The position numbers and the translations under genes are program-made. This document shows, piece after piece, positions 2,974-33,393 of a stretch of DNA of 64,000 nt (position 1 is the stretch's first letter; every line of letters starts with the position of its first letter). The stretch lies in the IMG/VR virus record IMGVR_UViG_3300010049_000011, positions 32,001 through 96,000 of that record; one strand, 5' to 3'. Below the pieces are notes generated by a model. It was not told the DNA's origin and did not search any database. It was given only the letters and a program-made list of their open reading frames with translations. The stretch comes from a virus (taxonomy: Duplodnaviria; Caudoviricetes).

Positions 2974-4734
2974 ATGGGACTTACTCATAAAGCTCAACTA
3001 CACGAAGGTTGGTTAAGAGACACAGCAGTAGCTGCTGGCACAGCTGGAGCAATTATGGCTGGCGCGGGTGCTTACAACAAGGCGAAGAATGCCCGAGCAG
3101 AACATTTCAGGGAGCTACCTAGAGAGAGCAAGGAACTCCTTCGAGACGACTATCTATCCCTCCCCAAGAACCCTTCGTTGGGTCAGTTTGTAGAGCATCG
3201 TAGGAGAGATTTAGGATCTACTAAATGGTTGGGTTGGAAACCTGGATACCTACTACCCGGAGCTCCGGCTAAAAAGGATGCATGGATAGAACATATATCT
3301 TCCTACCAGCTATCGGGCTCAGATTACAATAGAGCTGTTCAGGATTATTACGAAAAGTTCGGTAACGGATCTATTGCAGAATCTGTAGCAAGGGCTATGC
3401 TTATGGAGGACGACTCTGACGATGCGGCAGGTCTTGTGGACGCTCCTGTCCCTCCTGTAGACGATGCTTCTTTAGACGTGGGGGCTATGAACGAGTTCAA
3501 TGTGGGTGATGATGTAAACATGAGTGCTCCACCGAATACTGGGCCCGGCGCTCCTGATGTCGGAGGAGATGAAGAACGGATTCCTGATACAGAGATCTAT
3601 ATGCCAGAAGAGAGCACCCCTCCTAAGAGAGTGGGAACAATTATTGGGTTTGAAGAAGAAGTTAAAGACTATTCTGGTATTATTAAATTGATGCGAGAAG
3701 GAAAGTCAATCGAAGAAGCTCTAAACGTATCACACGAAGAGGAAAAGGAAGATGCAAAAGCAAAGAAGATCCGGGTTAGGTGGTCTGATGGAACGGAAAC
3801 CCTCGAGAACCCCTCAGTCCTCGCGATTGCAGAATCAGTTCCTTTCGTCCAGCAGAATCCAACCGAGATCCCCCTCGAGTCTAAAGATGAAGTCCTCAAG
3901 ACCTTCCTTAGGATGCTCGGAAGGATTTCAGATAAGCTTCCGAACCAAAATCTAAGCGAGATAGAGAATAGGATTGTTCCTGGTATATTCTCTTGGTTAT
4001 TCTCCCCCAAGACTAAGTATGCTAAAGGAGCTGTAGCCGTTCCAGAAGTGATTGACTACACGTCGTATACTGCAGGTTGTTGGCTTAACTCGATAGACTT
4101 CATGACTAATTATGGAGAGGACTACACTAATTACAAACTTGCTCACGGAGTGTGCTTCTCTGAAGACCAACTTAAGGCCTTGATAGATAAGTTAGACAAA
4201 GATCTTGTTCCGGTAAATTTCCACTTCGTAAAACATGGATTTATAGAAGTAGACGGAGATAAGATTTTCGACGCTACGCTGAAGGATAACACGAACTATT
4301 ACTATTTCTATAGGACAATCCCTGAAGAGATATGGAACTCGTTAAGATATACAATAAAGAAAGAACAAGGAGAATGGAATGTCGAAGATTTCGCTAACTA
4401 CACGGCAGCGCAGATCCTCGATTCTCGCATCGAGAGAGTTATTCCTTTACAGGAGGCGTATGTTAGGTTTACTTCGCTTTTGGAGTCTACGAAGTCTGAG
4501 GACGAGATAGAGGCTGATATCAACCACATCTTAGGATGGTACTTTGCTAAGGATGAGGACACCCGTTCCGAAACCGCTACATTCAATATGTTGAGGAAAT
4601 ACTTACAGGATAATAACCTCTCTGAGGAAGAATATAAGTGGGCTTTCGATCTATTAGACAGGAACTGGAGCGATAAGTATAAGAACTACGACGCTCTCTG
4701 GGACTCCGTAATGGAGAAGAAACGTGCAAATTAG
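2974..4734 (+). CDS. Putative modular internal head protein
   Basis: 586 aa; LHEG, IAESV x2, LMED, LQEAY, LLEST and VMEK sites separate distinct segments. Confidence 0.6.
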   Translation: MGLTHKAQLHEGWLRDTAVAAGTAGAIMAGAGAYNKAKNARAEHFRELPRESKELLRDDYLSLPKNPSLGQFVEHRRRDLGSTKWLGWKPGYLLPGAPAKKDAWIEHISSYQLSGSDYNRAVQDYYEKFGNGSIAESVARAMLMEDDSDDAAGLVDAPVPPVDDASLDVGAMNEFNVGDDVNMSAPPNTGPGAPDVGGDEERIPDTEIYMPEESTPPKRVGTIIGFEEEVKDYSGIIKLMREGKSIEEALNVSHEEEKEDAKAKKIRVRWSDGTETLENPSVLAIAESVPFVQQNPTEIPLESKDEVLKTFLRMLGRISDKLPNQNLSEIENRIVPGIFSWLFSPKTKYAKGAVAVPEVIDYTSYTAGCWLNSIDFMTNYGEDYTNYKLAHGVCFSEDQLKALIDKLDKDLVPVNFHFVKHGFIEVDGDKIFDATLKDNTNYYYFYRTIPEEIWNSLRYTIKKEQGEWNVEDFANYTAAQILDSRIERVIPLQEAYVRFTSLLESTKSEDEIEADINHILGWYFAKDEDTRSETATFNMLRKYLQDNNLSEEEYKWAFDLLDRNWSDKYKNYDALWDSVMEKKRAN

Positions 4735-26571: not shown

Positions 26572-27057
26572 GTGGCCTTAAAGTTTCTTAATTACGGTGT
26601 TTGTTTTCAAGAAATTCCTGGAGAGGTTTCCTTGTTCTTTAACGTAACCGGATGTCCCCGAAAATGTCCTGGGTGTCACACCCCCGAGCTTCAAACAGAG
26701 GCAGGAGAAACCTTAGATTCTGATACTGTTAAATCGATAGTACGCTACCACGCGATAACCGAGAAAGAACCCATAACTACAATACTGTTCTTCGGAGGGG
26801 ACCACGACCCTGAATTTATAAGCTTGTTAGAGGAGGTCTGGGAAGAATACTACATGCAGTTCTCTCTAGCTCTATACACGGGGGTGGAGACCAAGGAGGA
26901 AGTTTCTCCTTACTTACGTAGATACCTTAGGTATCTGAAGGTAGGTTCTTATAAAGAGAGCTTGGGACCTATTACCTCCAACACTACGAATCAGAGACTG
27001 TGGGACTTGTCTAAAAACCTAGATATAACTCACAAATTCTGGAAAACCAACATCTAA
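26572..27057 (+). CDS. nrdG: Anaerobic ribonucleotide reductase activase (radical SAM)
   Basis: FQEIPGEVSL; CPRKCPGCH; GGD; YTG; KVGSY; TTNQR. Confidence 0.93.
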   Translation: MALKFLNYGVCFQEIPGEVSLFFNVTGCPRKCPGCHTPELQTEAGETLDSDTVKSIVRYHAITEKEPITTILFFGGDHDPEFISLLEEVWEEYYMQFSLALYTGVETKEEVSPYLRRYLRYLKVGSYKESLGPITSNTTNQRLWDLSKNLDITHKFWKTNI

Positions 27058-27089: not shown

Positions 27090-28814
27090 ATGTACTCAAA
27101 ATTTAACGAAGAGCAACTGGCTGGTATGGCTAAGTACGCAGAGACCTTTGCAGAAGCGGTGAATACGGCCTCTGGAAGCGCAACAGACGCCAATGCTAAC
27201 GTTTCATGTAAGAATATCGCAACGTGGCGTTCGGAGTCTTGCAAGGAGCTCGAAAAGCAGTTTAACAGGTACTACGTAAGTAAACAGATAGAGAAGGATT
27301 GGGGTAAGGAGGTATCTGATAAATACAACGAGCTCCTCGAAGATCGTGTGATCTACAAGCATGATGAGTCAATCTCCCCGGGCATACCTTATTGTTGCGC
27401 TATGAACTCCGAGGAATTCCTCCGGTCAGGAACTACTAAGTTGGGGGGAGAATCTGAAGCTCCTATGCACTTGGATTCTTTCTGCGGGGCCTTTGTAAAT
27501 TACATATATGCCGTGTCTTCTCAATTCGCGGGTGCTGTCGCTACCCCAGACTTCTTACTCTACTTCGATTACTTTGCTCGGTTGGATTACGGAGACGACT
27601 ATCTTAAGACTCATAAAAGCGAGATAGAGAATCACCTGCAGACAATAATCTACGGTATTAACCATCCGGCAGGTAATAGAGGGTATCAGTCTGTGTTCTG
27701 GAACATCTCTTTCTTCGACAAGCATTACTTCGAAGGTATGTTTGGGGGCGATTTACAAGATGACGGATCTAGGATTAATCAGTTTAAGTTCCCAGATCTA
27801 GACTCGTACTCCAAGGACTCTATGCGTAAATGTCTGCGGAAGAAATCCCTAAGATCCCTAGGACTCTACGGAAAAACCGACTTATCCTGTGAAGACTTGG
27901 ACCTGGTTGAGGCTAAGGTTAGGTCGGAAGTGGCTAGATTCAACAAACTTCGCACTCCGAATTACAACTCTATTCATAAACTTCAGAAATTCTTCATGCC
28001 TTGGTTTAGGAAAGAACGTCTGAAAGGGAGAACCTTAACTTTCCCCGTCTTGACCTCGGCGGCCCTGATAGATACAAGCACAAACACTCTCAGAGATAGA
28101 GACTACGCCGATTGGATGGCCCACGAGTTATCTGAAGGGTCTTCGTTCTTTATATATAGTGATAAAGATGTGAGTTCCCTCAGCTCGTGTTGTAGATTAC
28201 GTAACACCCTAGACAAGAACCAGTTCTCCCACTCTATGGGCGGAGGTGGGTTAGCTACTGGGTCCATTTCGGTTATTACAATAAACTTCAATCGACTAAT
28301 ACAGAAGAAGTACGACCTAGAGGAGATTGTAAATTACATACACAAGTTCCACGTGTCCTACCGTAGAGTTACAGAATACTATCTAGCTAGGAAGATGTTG
28401 CCTGTCTACGACGCTGGGTTTATCTCCCTGTCTAGACAGTTCTTAACTGTGGGAGTTAATGGGTTCGTGCAGGCCGCTGAATACTTAGGTATTAGAGTCT
28501 CGGATAACGACGAGTATAAAAAATTCTGTATTGACAATTTAGGTAAGATAGGCGAGCTGAACAAGATAGCGGGCAAGAAATACGGAGTAAAATTCAATAC
28601 TGAATTTGTTCCTGCGGAGGGTCTTGGTGTTATAAATTGTTCTAAAGATAAGGAAGATGGTTTAATAGTAAGAAAACCTCACTTCATAATTACTCTAAAC
28701 GATGGAACATCTCGTGTTGTAAATTCAGGAGATTCAGTATTAGTAAAGGACCTAAATGGAAAAGAACTTGCAATACCAGTCGAAAATCTGTCCCAAGAGC
28801 ACTATCTGCTTTAA
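27090..28814 (+). CDS. nrdD: Anaerobic ribonucleotide reductase, N-terminal fragment of a split gene
   Basis: IYKHDE..PYC; SSQFAGAVAT; LTFPV; LSSCCRLRN; VITIN; TEFVPAEGLG; lacks the glycyl-radical C-terminus. Confidence 0.92.
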   Translation: MYSKFNEEQLAGMAKYAETFAEAVNTASGSATDANANVSCKNIATWRSESCKELEKQFNRYYVSKQIEKDWGKEVSDKYNELLEDRVIYKHDESISPGIPYCCAMNSEEFLRSGTTKLGGESEAPMHLDSFCGAFVNYIYAVSSQFAGAVATPDFLLYFDYFARLDYGDDYLKTHKSEIENHLQTIIYGINHPAGNRGYQSVFWNISFFDKHYFEGMFGGDLQDDGSRINQFKFPDLDSYSKDSMRKCLRKKSLRSLGLYGKTDLSCEDLDLVEAKVRSEVARFNKLRTPNYNSIHKLQKFFMPWFRKERLKGRTLTFPVLTSAALIDTSTNTLRDRDYADWMAHELSEGSSFFIYSDKDVSSLSSCCRLRNTLDKNQFSHSMGGGGLATGSISVITINFNRLIQKKYDLEEIVNYIHKFHVSYRRVTEYYLARKMLPVYDAGFISLSRQFLTVGVNGFVQAAEYLGIRVSDNDEYKKFCIDNLGKIGELNKIAGKKYGVKFNTEFVPAEGLGVINCSKDKEDGLIVRKPHFIITLNDGTSRVVNSGDSVLVKDLNGKELAIPVENLSQEHYLL

Positions 28815-30678
28815 TTGTAAAAATAGTTACGTACGCTTACCAGGACAACCTTCTTGGACTAAAAACGACAGCGGGACAGGTCGAAAGTATACTTCAGAAA
28901 AATTTTGCAGCTATAATTGCGGATCTCAATTCACATTAAATCGGATGAAAGAAACGTACTTTAAGAGGACAGGTTATAAAAATCCTAGTCATAATCCTGC
29001 TGTTAGTAAATTAAAAGAGGAAATTTTTTTAAAAAAATATGGATCTAAATCGTTTCTTGGATCTAAAGAATGTTTGGAAAAAACTAAAAGAACTAACTTA
29101 TTAAAGAGAGGTGTTGAAAATGTTGGTCAAGACCCTTCTGTAAGAGAAAAAACCAAACACACCTGCTTAGAGAAATATGGAGGGATTGGAAACTCCTCTA
29201 CAGAACTCTTGAATAAGTACAAAAAATCTAATTTAAGCAAGTACGGTTCAGAAAACCCTATGAATTGTGAAGAGATTAAAAAAAGACATATGGATTCCGT
29301 TTTTAGATCGTATGGAGTAAATAACCCTTATAATATTCCTCAAGTTAAAGAAAACAGAGAAGAAACCTTGCGTAGAGACAAGGAAATCTTAGATAAAAAG
29401 CGCGCGGCAACTAGTAGACAAAATAGAGGTTTTGATAACTATCTGCTGGATCGAAATTCTCTGAAAAAAGATTGGATAAATACAATAGGCGTAGATAATC
29501 CATTTAAATCAGAGGATGTGAAGAAGAAGATAAAGAAAACTAACATTGACAGATATGGTGTTGAAAATTGGATTCAAGATCCAAAAAATAAAGACACAGC
29601 TAAACGATCTCTAAGGGAAAATAATTATGAAGAATTCTTAAAGAAGGTATCAAATTTAGGACTTGAGCTTATGTCTCCTAGGGAAGATTATATTAATTAT
29701 AAAATTCTTTCGTTTTTCTGTAAAGAGCATTCCCTAACATTCTCTCAAGATTTTTATCAAGTAGACGCAATTAGATGTCCTGCTTGTTTAAGCTCTCACC
29801 ATACTAAGTGGGAAATTGATTTAAAGAATTTTCTTCAAGATCTAGGAGTCAGTGTACTATCGAACGACAGATCTACTGTCCTGGGTTCCAAGGGTAGGTA
29901 TTTAGAGATAGATTTATTAGTTCCGGAAAAGAATATAGGTATAGAATTAAACGGAATATACTGGCATACAGAAGATCAGAGAGAGGAATCTCAACACCTA
30001 CTACGTAAAACGCAATTAGCAGAATGCGCAGGGTTGAGAGTAATTCACTTTTTAGATAACGAATACAATTTAAAGCCTGAAATTGTAAAGTCTATGATAA
30101 GAGTTAAGTTAGGTTTATGCAGAGACAGGATATACGCAAGAAAGTGTGAAGTGAAGGAATTATCTACTGAAGATTATAGAAATTTCCTAGAGAAAAACCA
30201 CCTACATGGATATATTCCCTCAAGTACTAGGTTGGGTTTATATTATAAGAGTGAATTGGTCTTTGTTTGCGGATTCGGTGTTTCGAGATTTTCCCGAAAT
30301 GGAAACTCATCTACAGAGTTGTATAGGAGTTGTTCAAAACTTAACACTAATGTCTTAGGAGGGTTGAGTAAATTATTGAAGAACTTTTTAGATAAAAAAC
30401 CACATGTGAGAGAAATACAGACTTTTGCAGATAGAAGATTTTCTACCCCCCACAGCTATGAAAAAGTGGGGTTCAAGTTATGTGATACAACTGACCCAAA
30501 TTACTATTACACTAAGGATTTTGTGAATCTAGAATCGCGAATCAAGTATCAGAAACACAAACTTAAAGATATTCTCCCGATATTTGACCCTGTAAAAACT
30601 GAAGTAGAGAATATGAGAGATAATGGATTTAAAATATTCAAAGACTGCGGAAACTATAAATTAAAACTAACGAGGTAA
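28756..30678 (+). mobile_element. Hef-like free-standing endonuclease inserted in nrdD (KYG repeats + Vsr/PD-(D/E)xK + Mom/GNAT-like domain)
   Basis: T.L.KYG.ENP repeats; EIDLLVP...IELNGIYWH; IYARKC...GGLSKLL...TFAD; visibly more AT-rich than the flanks. Confidence 0.85.
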
Positions 30679-30680
30679 GT

Positions 30681-31157
30681 ATGAAAAGTAATATAAAAAA
30701 CATAGAATTTGTGAACTGTAACGAAGGAATAAGTGATATAGCTTACAATTCTTACTTCTTCCGCCCAGAAGATACCTCTCTTTCGATTTTCGAAAAGATG
30801 CGTATGCACGGAGATGGTGTAGTAGAGTCTCTAGACGGAGGTTCTGCTTGCCACTTAAACTTAGAGGAGCACCTCTCTAAAGAACAGTACCTTAAGACTC
30901 TTGATTATGCAGCCCAGGTAGGTTGTAACTACGTGACTTTCAACATCCCTTCCTCTAGGTGCGGTAATTGCGAACATCAAGATATAAATTACTGGCACTC
31001 CCCTGCTAGATGTCCTAAATGCGGAAGCGACAACATAGATTATTGTACTAGAGTAGTTGGATACCATCGATGGATCTCAAGCTGGCAGAACAAGAGACAG
31101 ATAGAAGGCAGATCTAGACATAACCACAAGATTGAGGGGTTTAGTAGTGGTGAATAA
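30681..31157 (+). CDS. nrdD: Anaerobic ribonucleotide reductase, C-terminal fragment (Zn site + glycyl radical)
   Basis: GAGG SD; YNSYFF; LDGGSACHLNLEE; CxxC...CPKCGS; TRVVGY. Confidence 0.92.
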   Translation: MKSNIKNIEFVNCNEGISDIAYNSYFFRPEDTSLSIFEKMRMHGDGVVESLDGGSACHLNLEEHLSKEQYLKTLDYAAQVGCNYVTFNIPSSRCGNCEHQDINYWHSPARCPKCGSDNIDYCTRVVGYHRWISSWQNKRQIEGRSRHNHKIEGFSSGE

Positions 31158-31698
31158 TTCTTTTGGTATCCCTGAGAAAACTTGGGTTAAGTGGGAGAAC
31201 CACGCTCGAGAGCGCACTAAGAAGCACATAGGTCTATATAAAAAATATATGGATGTAATTTACCCTGAAAGAGATAATACTAATCATGATCTAAGTAAGT
31301 TTACGGAAGATTTTTGGGGTCCATACGTTCTGATCAACGCTAAGTATAATTTCGGATTCAAACCTAACGAAGATCAAGAAAAAGCAATGGCTTTAGCTAC
31401 TTACAACCACATACTGACTGAAGATCACCATCCTGAATTTTGGGCTCCAGAAGTTGATTACGATTGGACAGCTAAAGATCGAACTAAAAATGTTAAGATG
31501 TGTGACTGCAGAGGGATGCCTGATGCATGTTTGATTAAAGCCGTAGCTGATTGGTGCGCTATGTCGGAAGAGATTGGAGAGAATACTCCAATGGATTGGA
31601 TTAATAATCAGTTTGGAAAAAGATGGGTTTTTACCCCCAAGCAGAAAAGGTTCTCCTTAGATATTGCTGAGAAGATGTGGAAAGATGAAGAACTCTAG
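31132..31698 (+). CDS. HD-like metal-dependent hydrolase (DUF5662-like)
   Basis: HDLSKF; H...EDHHPE; MP...ADWCAMS. Confidence 0.65.
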   Translation: MRGLVVVNNSFGIPEKTWVKWENHARERTKKHIGLYKKYMDVIYPERDNTNHDLSKFTEDFWGPYVLINAKYNFGFKPNEDQEKAMALATYNHILTEDHHPEFWAPEVDYDWTAKDRTKNVKMCDCRGMPDACLIKAVADWCAMSEEIGENTPMDWINNQFGKRWVFTPKQKRFSLDIAEKMWKDEEL

Positions 31699-31870
31699 AC
31701 ACTTACTCCTTGAAGTTAATGCCGTAATAGAAGAAGGTTTGTCGATTGGACAATCAAACACTCTTACTGCATTGTACGAATCAGAATCCCTGGATTTTAT
31801 TAGACTTGATTATGGGTGCAGAGTTGTCCAACCTAAAACACCTCTGCTGCTGGTAGACGCTTCTGCTTAA
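31685..31870 (+). CDS. Hypothetical protein
   Basis: Short ORF overlapping the upstream stop and meeting the convergent endonuclease stop. Confidence 0.4.
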   Translation: MKNSRHLLLEVNAVIEEGLSIGQSNTLTALYESESLDFIRLDYGCRVVQPKTPLLLVDASA

Positions 31871-33393
31871 TTTTCTCTAACCCATGTCCACGTAGACTGA
31901 CCCTCGTCGTAAACAATTTTGTATCCGTTCTCCAGCATTAACTTTTCGTTAGACTCTCCTTTTTTGGCAAGTTCATAGTTACTGTCTCCGTGAAGTTGGG
32001 AATATCCCCGTTGACGCAACAAAGAATCCGTTATATGTCTTTTTGTTTCTTCGTTGTAGTAGTGTTTGTTTGAGGACCCTTTAGATTTTAAATTAAACCC
32101 GAGACGTCTATAAACCTCACCACCAAATTTAGAGTTATCGCAATAAGAGACTACAGATTCTGGAGAACATGTTTCTGAGAAGTGTTTGAATAGCTTCTCC
32201 GATCCCCCAACCACAGCATATCCCGATTTAGTGCAGAGTCTGAGTAGCTCCCACTCTACTTTCTTATTATATCTAGGTTTACCGAAAGTTATGACCTGTA
32301 TAAGATTGTTTTCGTCGAATAAACCTAACCTAACTTCCTGACCTCTGCAAGAATTCTGTAAGTGGTGTGTCTTGAGAAAGTCTTCACAATCTTCTTCGGA
32401 AAGTTTCTTAATGTCTAGATTCCTGGCATACAGTTTCGTTTTGTTTACAAAAATCATGTCATAAACTTTTACTAGATCTTCCCAGGGATACGCTTTGAAG
32501 AATTCCTCGGAAAACTCACACACGAAACTAGGGTTGTCGTAATACTGAGATTCCCAACAATGCATAATCCTGTATCCTGACTTCTTAAGATAGCATAATT
32601 TCTCGATAGTTTTTAAAAACTTGTCCGATTTTTCAGGAAAGCTCCGAGGATTTCCATGCCAATAATCTCCGCTAAACTCGTAAACAGTTTTGGAGTCGTT
32701 TAAATACCCGTCCACTAACCTGTGATTGACTGTAACTTGCCTATTTTCTTCTTTATCGGGAACTCCGATATTATCCAACCAGACATTTTCAACTTTAGAG
32801 GAATAATACGATTTTCCATCAAGCTCCATTTTCTTGTATGCTTCATCTATCTTCTTGAGACCTTCCTGAGAAGTTAGGAAATTGATTGACCCGTACCTTT
32901 CAATGTTGGTTTTTCTCCTAGTCTCAATAGTTCGCTCTTTCACTCCCGGAATTTTCCATTGGTCCCCAGACATCTTCCTACCTTCATCTGTTTGTCTCCA
33001 GTAAGCTTTCCCGTAGGTTTTTATGCATGTCTCTTCTTTCTTTCTTAGAGCTTCTGGTGTAGAGTTTAGTATAATCGCCTTTTTCAATATTTCTGGATTC
33101 TCGTACGTGTACTTATACCCTGTAGACTCTAAGCAAGTTGCCTCTTTCTTTCTTTTTATGTCCTCTACCTGGCTGATGTTGTCAACTCCGTATTTTCTTC
33201 GAACTGTTTCCTTTGACTTTCTGTGTATCTCTGGGTTATGCAGCGGAGATTCATACCCGTATTTATCTAAATTAGATTGCTTGACTTTATCCTTAACGGC
33301 CTTACTAGATGCAGGCCAGGGAACACCCCACTTCGCAACATTTGCTGCGATTCTTTTTTGTCTCTCTTCCTCAGTCCACTTTGTTTTGGGCAC
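31867..33393 (-). mobile_element. Hef-like free-standing endonuclease (KYG repeats + Vsr-like + Mom/GNAT-like domain)
   Basis: KYG/RYG repeats; VDGY...YEFSGDYWHG; WESQY; LYAR...ELLRLC...GG...SYCD; opposite to the local strand. Confidence 0.82.

Follow-up and report, generated by a model that had tools for sequence, protein, structure and literature searches.

Organization of the nrdD locus

We analysed 64,000 nucleotides (nt) of viral DNA (Duplodnaviria; Caudoviricetes), corresponding to positions 32,001 to 96,000 of the IMG/VR record IMGVR_UViG_3300010049_000011. This stretch, hereafter called the window, is part of a 145-kilobase (kb) record with an estimated completeness of 58%. In the window, nrdD, which encodes a class III ribonucleotide reductase, is fractured at a clean break by a free-standing homing endonuclease gene, and the two nrdD parts carry additional sequences at the break that we call the N tail and the C tail. 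The features of the locus are listed below (positions are those of the window; aa, amino acids; GC, fraction of G and C).

26572..27057, plus strand: nrdG, coding for the radical-SAM activase of NrdD, intact, immediately before nrdD (Pfam Fer4_12 and Radical_SAM)
27090..28814, plus strand: nrdD N part, 574 aa, containing SSCCR
27090..28670, plus strand: body of the N part, barrel and SSCCR thiyl-radical loop (Pfam NRDD 10-428, E 2.4e-62; GC 0.44)
28671..28814, plus strand: N tail, 47 aa and stop codon, AT-rich (GC 0.34-0.37)
28756..30678, plus strand: free-standing homing endonuclease gene, 640 aa, frame +1 (Pfam; phrog_3339; 3R3P; GC 0.337)
30672..30675, plus strand: Shine-Dalgarno sequence GAGG of the nrdD C part, within the 3' end of the endonuclease gene (read from the sequence)
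30681..31157, plus strand: nrdD C part, 158 aa, zinc ribbon and RVVGY, in the same frame as the N part
30681..30740, plus strand: C tail, about 20 aa, extremely AT-rich (GC 0.233)
30741..31157, plus strand: body of the C part, zinc ribbon and glycyl-radical loop RVVGY (Pfam NRDD 431-562, E 1.5e-24; GC 0.434)

The coverage of the NRDD profile, which ends at position 428 in one part and resumes at 431 in the other, defines the break. The N part also matches the NrdD of T. maritima (4COI, E 9e-45), and the nearest relatives of the phage protein are unsplit, including a 673-aa protein with 56% identity. In an alignment, nine intact homologues are continuous across the break (..DKEDGLxVPRD|CYNSYF..), whereas the phage protein reads ..DKEDGLIV followed by 47 aa and then, in the second open reading frame (ORF), 20 aa followed by AYNSYFF. 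Each tail boundary is uncertain by about 3 residues, since the residues RKP and SDI may be altered native ones. The initial annotation had described nrdD as split by an endonuclease gene, with tails of about 47 and 20 aa; the ORFs, the NRDD profile and the nine-homologue alignment confirm this description.

All features of a class III NrdD are present, namely the NRDD fold, the Cys loop, the zinc ribbon, the glycyl-radical motif and an adjacent nrdG, and the invariant NrdD residues are all kept across both ORFs. No class I or class II reductase was found in the 145 kb of the record (58% complete), which argues that nrdD stays in use. The phage collection contained no near-identical DNA. Residues 231-288 of the N part (27780-27953) form an insertion of some 58 aa with many Lys, Arg and Leu residues; it is absent from the aligned phage and bacterial homologues and appears to be specific to this lineage.

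The endonuclease and its family

The interrupting gene is equipped for independent expression: the sequence AAGGA lies 5 nt before its ATG, it has its own stop codon, and its frame differs from that of nrdD. It overlaps the N part by 59 nt, with the last 19 codons of the N tail lying over its start. The C part begins 2 nt past the endonuclease stop codon, and its GAGG sequence ends 5 nt before the ATG.

Pfam identifies in the protein a zinc ribbon, DUF7487 repeats, a nuclease domain of the Vsr-like/EDxHD type and, at the C terminus, a Mom-like domain. PHROG 3339, a family with the annotation homing endonuclease, is matched with an E-value of 1e-108. A profile built from the endonuclease and three relatives matches the catalytic domain of I-Bth0305I (PDB 3R3P, E 3.4e-5), and residues D386, E397, W403 and H404 are invariant among the aligned relatives; the match and the invariant D, E and WH residues place the protein in the Vsr-like/EDxHD family of I-Bth0305I. 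Members of this family are known both between the halves of split inteins and in intein-less genes (PMC2677866). The phage genome itself contains at least 7 related endonuclease genes. One of them is found on the minus strand at 31867-33393, 0.7 kb downstream of nrdD, and its product shares the DUF7487, Vsr-like and Mom-like architecture. Relatives on three other viral contigs (L004-L006) are intergenic, located among structural genes and without intein flanks.

Search for an intron

Of the phage reductase genes, nrdD is the one most often split, by introns as well as inteins (Dwivedi et al. 2013). We considered RNA splicing at the break. An Rfam scan of positions 28300-31200 gave no match to a group I or group II intron at E-values up to 10. 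Two phage loci (L018 and L019) in which nrdD is interrupted 22 codons upstream, at VP|AENLGVK, served as controls. The same scan detected one ORF-less group I intron in L018 and partial group I matches flanking both HNH-bearing nrdD introns in L019; it missed one control interruption, the second gap in L018. This gap, at about 4328-4588, comprises 170-290 nt. In both control loci (L018:2225-5043 and L019:1-4968) nrdD is in three pieces, and the break FNTE(F/Y)VP|AENLGVK is recurrent; it is also common among 454 short NrdD C-terminal proteins in metagenomes.

The insert outside the endonuclease ORF amounts to only 85 nt on one side and 60 nt on the other. Its 5' region showed no unusual RNA folding (z = +0.65), and no RNA hairpin that would sequester the ribosome-binding site of the endonuclease was found. 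Judged by sequence, an intron at the nrdD break appears unlikely. The initial annotation had excluded an intron because the ORFs overlap or abut, leaving no free sequence for it. That argument does not suffice, as abutting ORFs alone do not exclude an intron; its conclusion is made likely by the Rfam scan, which recognized control introns, one interruption excepted, and gave no signal here.

Composition and uniqueness of the tails

In GC content both tails resemble the endonuclease cassette and differ from the two nrdD bodies, indicating that they belong to the inserted DNA. The N tail is an open read-through of 47 codons, expected by chance with a probability of about 0.018 at this base composition. 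Within the 55 codons examined (28671-28835, 165 nt, 34-37% GC) frames 0 and 2 are both free of stop codons, and frame 1 becomes the endonuclease ORF. There is a mild charge polarity, from a net negative charge at the end of the N tail to a net positive one at the start of the C tail.

No second copy of either tail was found elsewhere in the genome. A tblastn search against all phage records hit 5 records, all with E-values of 1 or more; the two matches inspected, an unannotated non-coding stretch and a 108-aa protein, were treated as chance. The break thus carries unique AT-rich tails that were acquired with the insertion.

Comparison of the tails with intein sequences

The residues required for protein splicing are absent, as had been claimed and as can be read directly from the sequence. 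There is no Cys1 at the N junction (..GLIV|RKPHF..), NSGD occupies the position of TxxH, and a terminal His-Asn is missing. The C tail, with 20 aa, contains neither block F nor block G, and the residue before YNSYF is Ala.

The phage possesses a genuine split intein that serves as an internal positive control, being recognized by the tools that were applied to the tails (TIGR01445 and TIGR01443). It lies outside the window, in a family A DNA polymerase gene (polA) distributed over three ORFs (L020:1-3192, equivalent to G000:126935-130126 in the coordinates of the record). The PolA N-intein of 118 aa, with Cys1 and TPDH, ends the N part of the polymerase, and an overlapping ORF contains a 41-aa C-intein that ends in HN|S. 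In this second ORF the C-intein is followed by about 20 polymerase-like residues, after which the frame departs from the polymerase; the third ORF starts some 200 nt further on, just before motif A. A pairwise alignment of the N tail with the PolA N-intein of the phage gave no evidence of relationship (p 0.72).

With the PolA intein and an alignment derived from it we gathered 85 intein-bearing viral loci, yielding 67 distinct sequences, and built from these phage inteins a profile of 48 columns around block B. The N tail scores 5.4 bits, a value reached by 0.06% of shuffled tails and by 0.56% of the real 52-aa windows of this phage's ORFs (7 windows). Two of the 7 belong to the PolA intein and two to a Hint-like ORF beside a helicase gene. 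When a fixed-register matrix covering 15 columns before block B was used, the N tail reached p 0.0018, with the best register being the structural one; its score of -1.3 bits is nevertheless far below that of real inteins (median 22.8). This is weak sequence support for a relationship between the N tail and inteins (p about 0.002-0.006). The N tail ends 26 residues past the equivalent of the block B histidine, and the nine natural split N-inteins in the set end 22-28 residues past it, most of them being followed by an endonuclease gene within 100 nt.

The Hint-like ORF beside the helicase gene (about 117.6 kb in G000, outside the window; ..GWVRVKDL.., ..KIFERIEH..) gave the best scores in the genome apart from PolA, with 9.0 and 7.2 bits for its two windows. 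It would fit a second degenerate Hint element.

For the C tail, the pattern resembles the first strand of a C-intein. The comparison with the PolA C-intein gave p 0.013, and that with a profile of 13 C-intein starts gave p about 0.03, which we do not regard as significant.

Predicted structure of the N tail

An AlphaFold2 (AF2) model of the N part, computed with an alignment of truncated homologues, was poor overall, with a mean predicted local distance difference test (pLDDT) of 58. It showed the N tail as four strands with a pLDDT of 61-74. The same four strands were predicted for the 52-aa tail alone (mean pLDDT 64, core 68-78). We compared this model exhaustively with 48,161 PDB representatives using VIA-align and obtained 32 chains with a Z-score of at least 2. 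Inteins and Hedgehog Hint domains account for 14 of them, occupying ranks 1-4 and 6-13 among others. At the top were PI-PfuI (Z 4.5, root-mean-square deviation 2.1 Å over 45 aligned residues) and the P. horikoshii PolII mini-intein (Z 4.0). All intein and Hint alignments cover one and the same region, for example Npu DnaE 53-94, gp41-1 44-84, NrdJ-1 61-104 and Hedgehog 310-355.

A shape search of the ESM Atlas pointed in the same direction. Its first row was a viral cluster named 'Intein splicing domain-containing protein'; among the 10 rows listed, 4 carry Intein_splicing (PF14890), and another 5 are clusters of DnaE, PolB, reductase or terminase with mostly viral members. The language-model feature search of the ESM Atlas was uninformative (score 0.79). 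In BFVD, the only matches with good geometry were phage DnaE, DNA polymerases and a Campylobacter phage reductase. What counts in these comparisons is the enrichment of inteins and the constant register, not the absolute scores. In its predicted structure, the N tail is like the latter half of an N-intein, between block B and the canonical split site; this is the register originally proposed, and VIA-align and the ESM Atlas support it.

Predicted pairing of the tails

We predicted the complex of N-part residues 515-574 with C-part residues 1-32, together with three controls. The interaction prediction score from aligned errors (ipSAE) was 0.38 for the tail pair and 0.01 for the best control. 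Of 78 solved complexes, 51 reached the mark set for this score, as did 2 of 108 mismatched pairs; scores at 0.60 or under included only 5 of the 78 solved complexes and all 4 passing mismatches (of 180). The runs shared at least 78% of contacts, and the pLDDT of the partner was at least 51. The chain with the N tail had a pLDDT of 67-68 with its own partner, as against 44-47 with unrelated partners. These models lend weak support to the idea that the tails bind each other.

Interpretation of the tails

We favour, with a probability of roughly 0.55, the view that the phage makes a two-chain, non-splicing NrdD, and that the tails are relics of the endonuclease-proximal parts of split-intein halves that may act as a clasp. 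According to this reading, a Vsr-like/EDxHD endonuclease cassette fractured nrdD at a surface loop, either bringing along the endonuclease-proximal parts of a split intein or inserting into them. Nothing else of the intein would remain, and what is left would be catalytically dead. The gene would be expressed as two polypeptides that form a non-covalent two-chain class III reductase, with neither RNA nor protein splicing. The ancestor of the N tail would have been the half of an N-intein nearest the endonuclease, running from block B to the canonical split site, and the C tail would probably go back to the opening strand or strands of the C-intein that matched it. The segments kept would then be those through which the two halves of natural split inteins first touch. 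In the work of Shah (2013), the N-intein part between block B and the split site is reported to be the disordered half that first contacts the C-intein. In the capture-and-collapse model, likewise, the segments around the split site recognize each other first (PMC11766414). The beginning of the N tail and the end of the C tail meet at one broken loop. The two tails probably pair into a small beta module, which would help to hold or position the NrdD fragments, a task that falls to the tails in Aeh1 NrdA as well. We regard the clasp as a plausible, though unproven, function.

A more far-reaching version can be advanced only tentatively: the endonuclease cassette may carry its own antidote, in the form of split-intein recognition segments that flank it as a portable heterodimerization clasp. 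The flanks would in that case, again as a speculative possibility, correspond to the N-intein segment that runs between block B and the split site and to the first C-intein strand, without catalysis. If true, such a clasp would let an endonuclease settle in an essential, intein-less gene, it would offer an origin for the tails of fractured genes, and it would represent a natural, minimal, non-splicing half-Hint binding module.

Several results weigh against an intein ancestry of the tails. The intein and Hint models of Pfam and NCBIfam did not match either tail at E-values up to 10, and a six-frame scan of the genome for Intein_splicing found only the PolA locus, so the tools that miss the tails do detect a genuine split intein of the same phage. 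A phmmer search of the tail against 1.8 billion protein representatives returned only WD40, SLH-repeat and Calx-beta proteins, which point to a generic beta-hairpin sequence. A word-based protein search returned the query alone, leaving no related locus for selection tests. For the C tail, besides the lack of significance, a sequence rich in I, K and N is expected from AT-rich DNA anyway. Of the N tail, the last 19 codons are shared with the start of the endonuclease. The structural evidence has its own weaknesses: Foldseek found nothing significant for the N tail in PDB or BFVD, and all structural Z-scores are below 5 and come from one AF2 model made without an alignment. In the complex prediction, native NrdD anchors present in both chains may contribute to the score. 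In addition, a PDB sequence search with the tail gave only ubiquitin-like hairpins.

The proposal in the initial annotation, a non-splicing half-intein serving as heterodimerization tag, therefore survives in part. It agrees with the missing intron signal, the missing splicing residues and the predicted fold of the N tail; it is not borne out by the C tail or by the curated Hint models, and the predicted binding of the two tails passes only weakly.

Alternative explanations

It is somewhat doubtful, yet deserves serious consideration, that the two-chain enzyme is real and its tails incidental. The N tail would then be a read-through of the cassette's 5' untranslated region and the C tail would result from a start codon recruited in its 3' region, with neither intein ancestry nor a role, and AlphaFold would have produced the intein-like model by filling in a generic beta-hairpin pattern. 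The resemblance of the tails to the cassette in composition fits this, as do the overlap of the N tail with the endonuclease start, the second open frame, and the sequence matches to WD40 and other repeat proteins where curated Hint models are blank. Comparable tails of 25 and 9 aa moreover exist on an intein-less split gene, the SbcD-like one (PMC2677866). An incidental origin accounts less well for 47 open codons and for the profile signal of the N tail. The intein matches are also strongly enriched in two structure libraries, share one register and stop at the split site, and it is only with its own partner that the N tail gains in pLDDT. Decay is decidedly improbable. If the insertion had inactivated nrdD, the two ORFs would be remnants, and one could point to the numerous related endonuclease genes of this genome and to the want of relatives that might show purifying selection. 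Both ORFs are intact, however, and keep the invariant residues; nrdG is intact as well, translation signals are present, no other reductase class was found in the 145 kb, and split reductases can be active (PMC3045599).

The remaining possibilities would restore a single chain. It is very unlikely that the insert is a group I intron carrying the endonuclease ORF, so that RNA splicing would restore nrdD and the tails would scarcely be made. Such an intron would be in keeping with the status of nrdD as a favoured intron host, with the many phage nrdD genes interrupted 22 codons upstream and with the Vsr-like endonucleases in recA introns (PMC2677866). In-frame junctions can be devised manually that miss the native length by one residue in either direction, and one control interruption did escape Rfam. 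Against this stand the blank Rfam result from a method that detected control introns, the 85 and 60 nt available outside the ORF, the unremarkable folding of the 5' region, and the C part's own Shine-Dalgarno sequence and ATG. That the tails form an unusually small active split intein which ligates the NrdD halves is hardly credible. The C tail does contain an Asn-Cys dipeptide in an intein-like context (..FVN|CNEG..), but the N junction lacks a nucleophile, TxxH and blocks F and G are missing, the +1 residue before YNSYF is Ala, and no intein model matches. The tails total 67 aa, compared with 88-105 plus 33-54 aa in natural split inteins (PMC2677866). As the catalytic residues are absent and the tails far too short, we set protein splicing aside.

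Relation to known systems

The closest parallel is the NrdA-a/mobE/NrdA-b arrangement of phage Aeh1 (Friedrich 2007; PMC3045599), where the catalytic subunit of a reductase is likewise split by a free-standing homing endonuclease gene, with AT-rich tails at the break. There, NrdA cannot do without its AT-rich tails, which arrived with mobE and are interaction domains serving the assembly of the large subunit rather than heterodimer formation, and the authors speculated that tails and mobE are remnants of a degenerate split intein, although no relatives of the tails were detectable (Crona et al. 2011; PMC3045599). The two systems differ in that Aeh1 has a class I NrdA and an HNH endonuclease, here replaced by a class III NrdD and a Vsr-like/EDxHD enzyme. 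For Aeh1 it is established that no splicing occurs and that the tails are essential, whereas the present tails are known from sequence and models, the N tail having an intein-like predicted fold. The initial annotation had set the locus apart from the mobE-split NrdA, a distinction that we consider overstated because Crona et al. had already demonstrated essential tails and suggested an intein origin. The locus extends the known Aeh1-type phenomenon rather than founding a new one.

Dassa et al. (2009; PMC2677866) described fractured genes whose split-intein halves flank a gene for a Vsr-like or GIY-YIG endonuclease. The order of elements (host N part, N-intein, endonuclease, C-intein, host C part) is the same as here, as are the endonuclease family, the location of the endonuclease at the canonical split site and the way in which the downstream gene abuts the endonuclease 3' end. 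Those inteins keep Cys1, TxxH and Asn plus nucleophile in halves of 88-105 and 33-54 aa, in contrast to tails of about 47 and 20 aa without any catalytic residue. NrdD is not among the hosts of fractured genes listed by these authors (PMC2677866). They also reported an intein-less SbcD-like gene split by a Vsr-like endonuclease gene, with inserted tails of 25 and 9 aa (PMC2677866). That case shares with ours an intein-less host, the endonuclease family and short peptides at the break; the tails described here are longer, and the N tail looks Hint-derived. When compared with the split inteins Npu DnaE, gp41-1 and NrdJ-1, the N tail superposes on the region from block B to the split site, and the charge polarity is the same but mild. 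Natural split inteins differ in possessing an N-terminal lobe that is pre-folded, together with catalytic blocks A, B, F and G; the lack of these precludes splicing here. The nrdD intein of Clostridium phage c-st provides no precedent for an intein at this break, since it sits at profile position 240/245 and not at 428/431.

As far as our searches show, this is the first case of such a tail with a detectable intein signature, which lies in the expected register, stops at the canonical split site and has for a neighbour an endonuclease from the family known from split inteins. Confirmation would connect fractured genes that contain inteins with those that do not, and both with the origin of the tails; it would add class III reductases to the enzymes that tolerate fragmentation at a defined loop. 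It would also provide a very small natural non-splicing half-Hint pair, a candidate orthogonal heterodimerization tag. The locus is of interest to those working on inteins and homing endonucleases.

Other NrdD fragments

We examined short metagenomic NrdD C-terminal proteins as possible further examples of the same split, but most begin at the upstream intron site. Two of them (P0154 and P0178) start near the nrdD break and proved to be frameshifted bacterial genes, not endonuclease splits, and another (P0175) is an unrelated stand-alone C domain.

A bacterial nrdD with the same frameshift in the ..YRECY|NSYF.. loop was seen in three independent assemblies (L014:1441-1510, L015 and L016), representing 24 member sequences. 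A genuine split, a programmed frameshift and a pseudogene are all conceivable here. A stand-alone NrdD C-terminal domain of 153 aa, comprising zinc ribbon and glycyl-radical loop and 46% identical to the phage C part, is encoded on a 1-kb contig (L013:379-840), where it overlaps the stop codon of an enolase-superfamily gene. Finally, the phage genome contains, outside the window, a 60-aa ORF (L003:1459-1641, about 103091-103273 in G000) with the sequence ..TRAMGYHRP.. and a match to NRDD positions 531-562 at 27 bits. It may encode a stand-alone glycyl-radical 'spare part' like GrcA/YfiD of E. coli and Y06I of T4.

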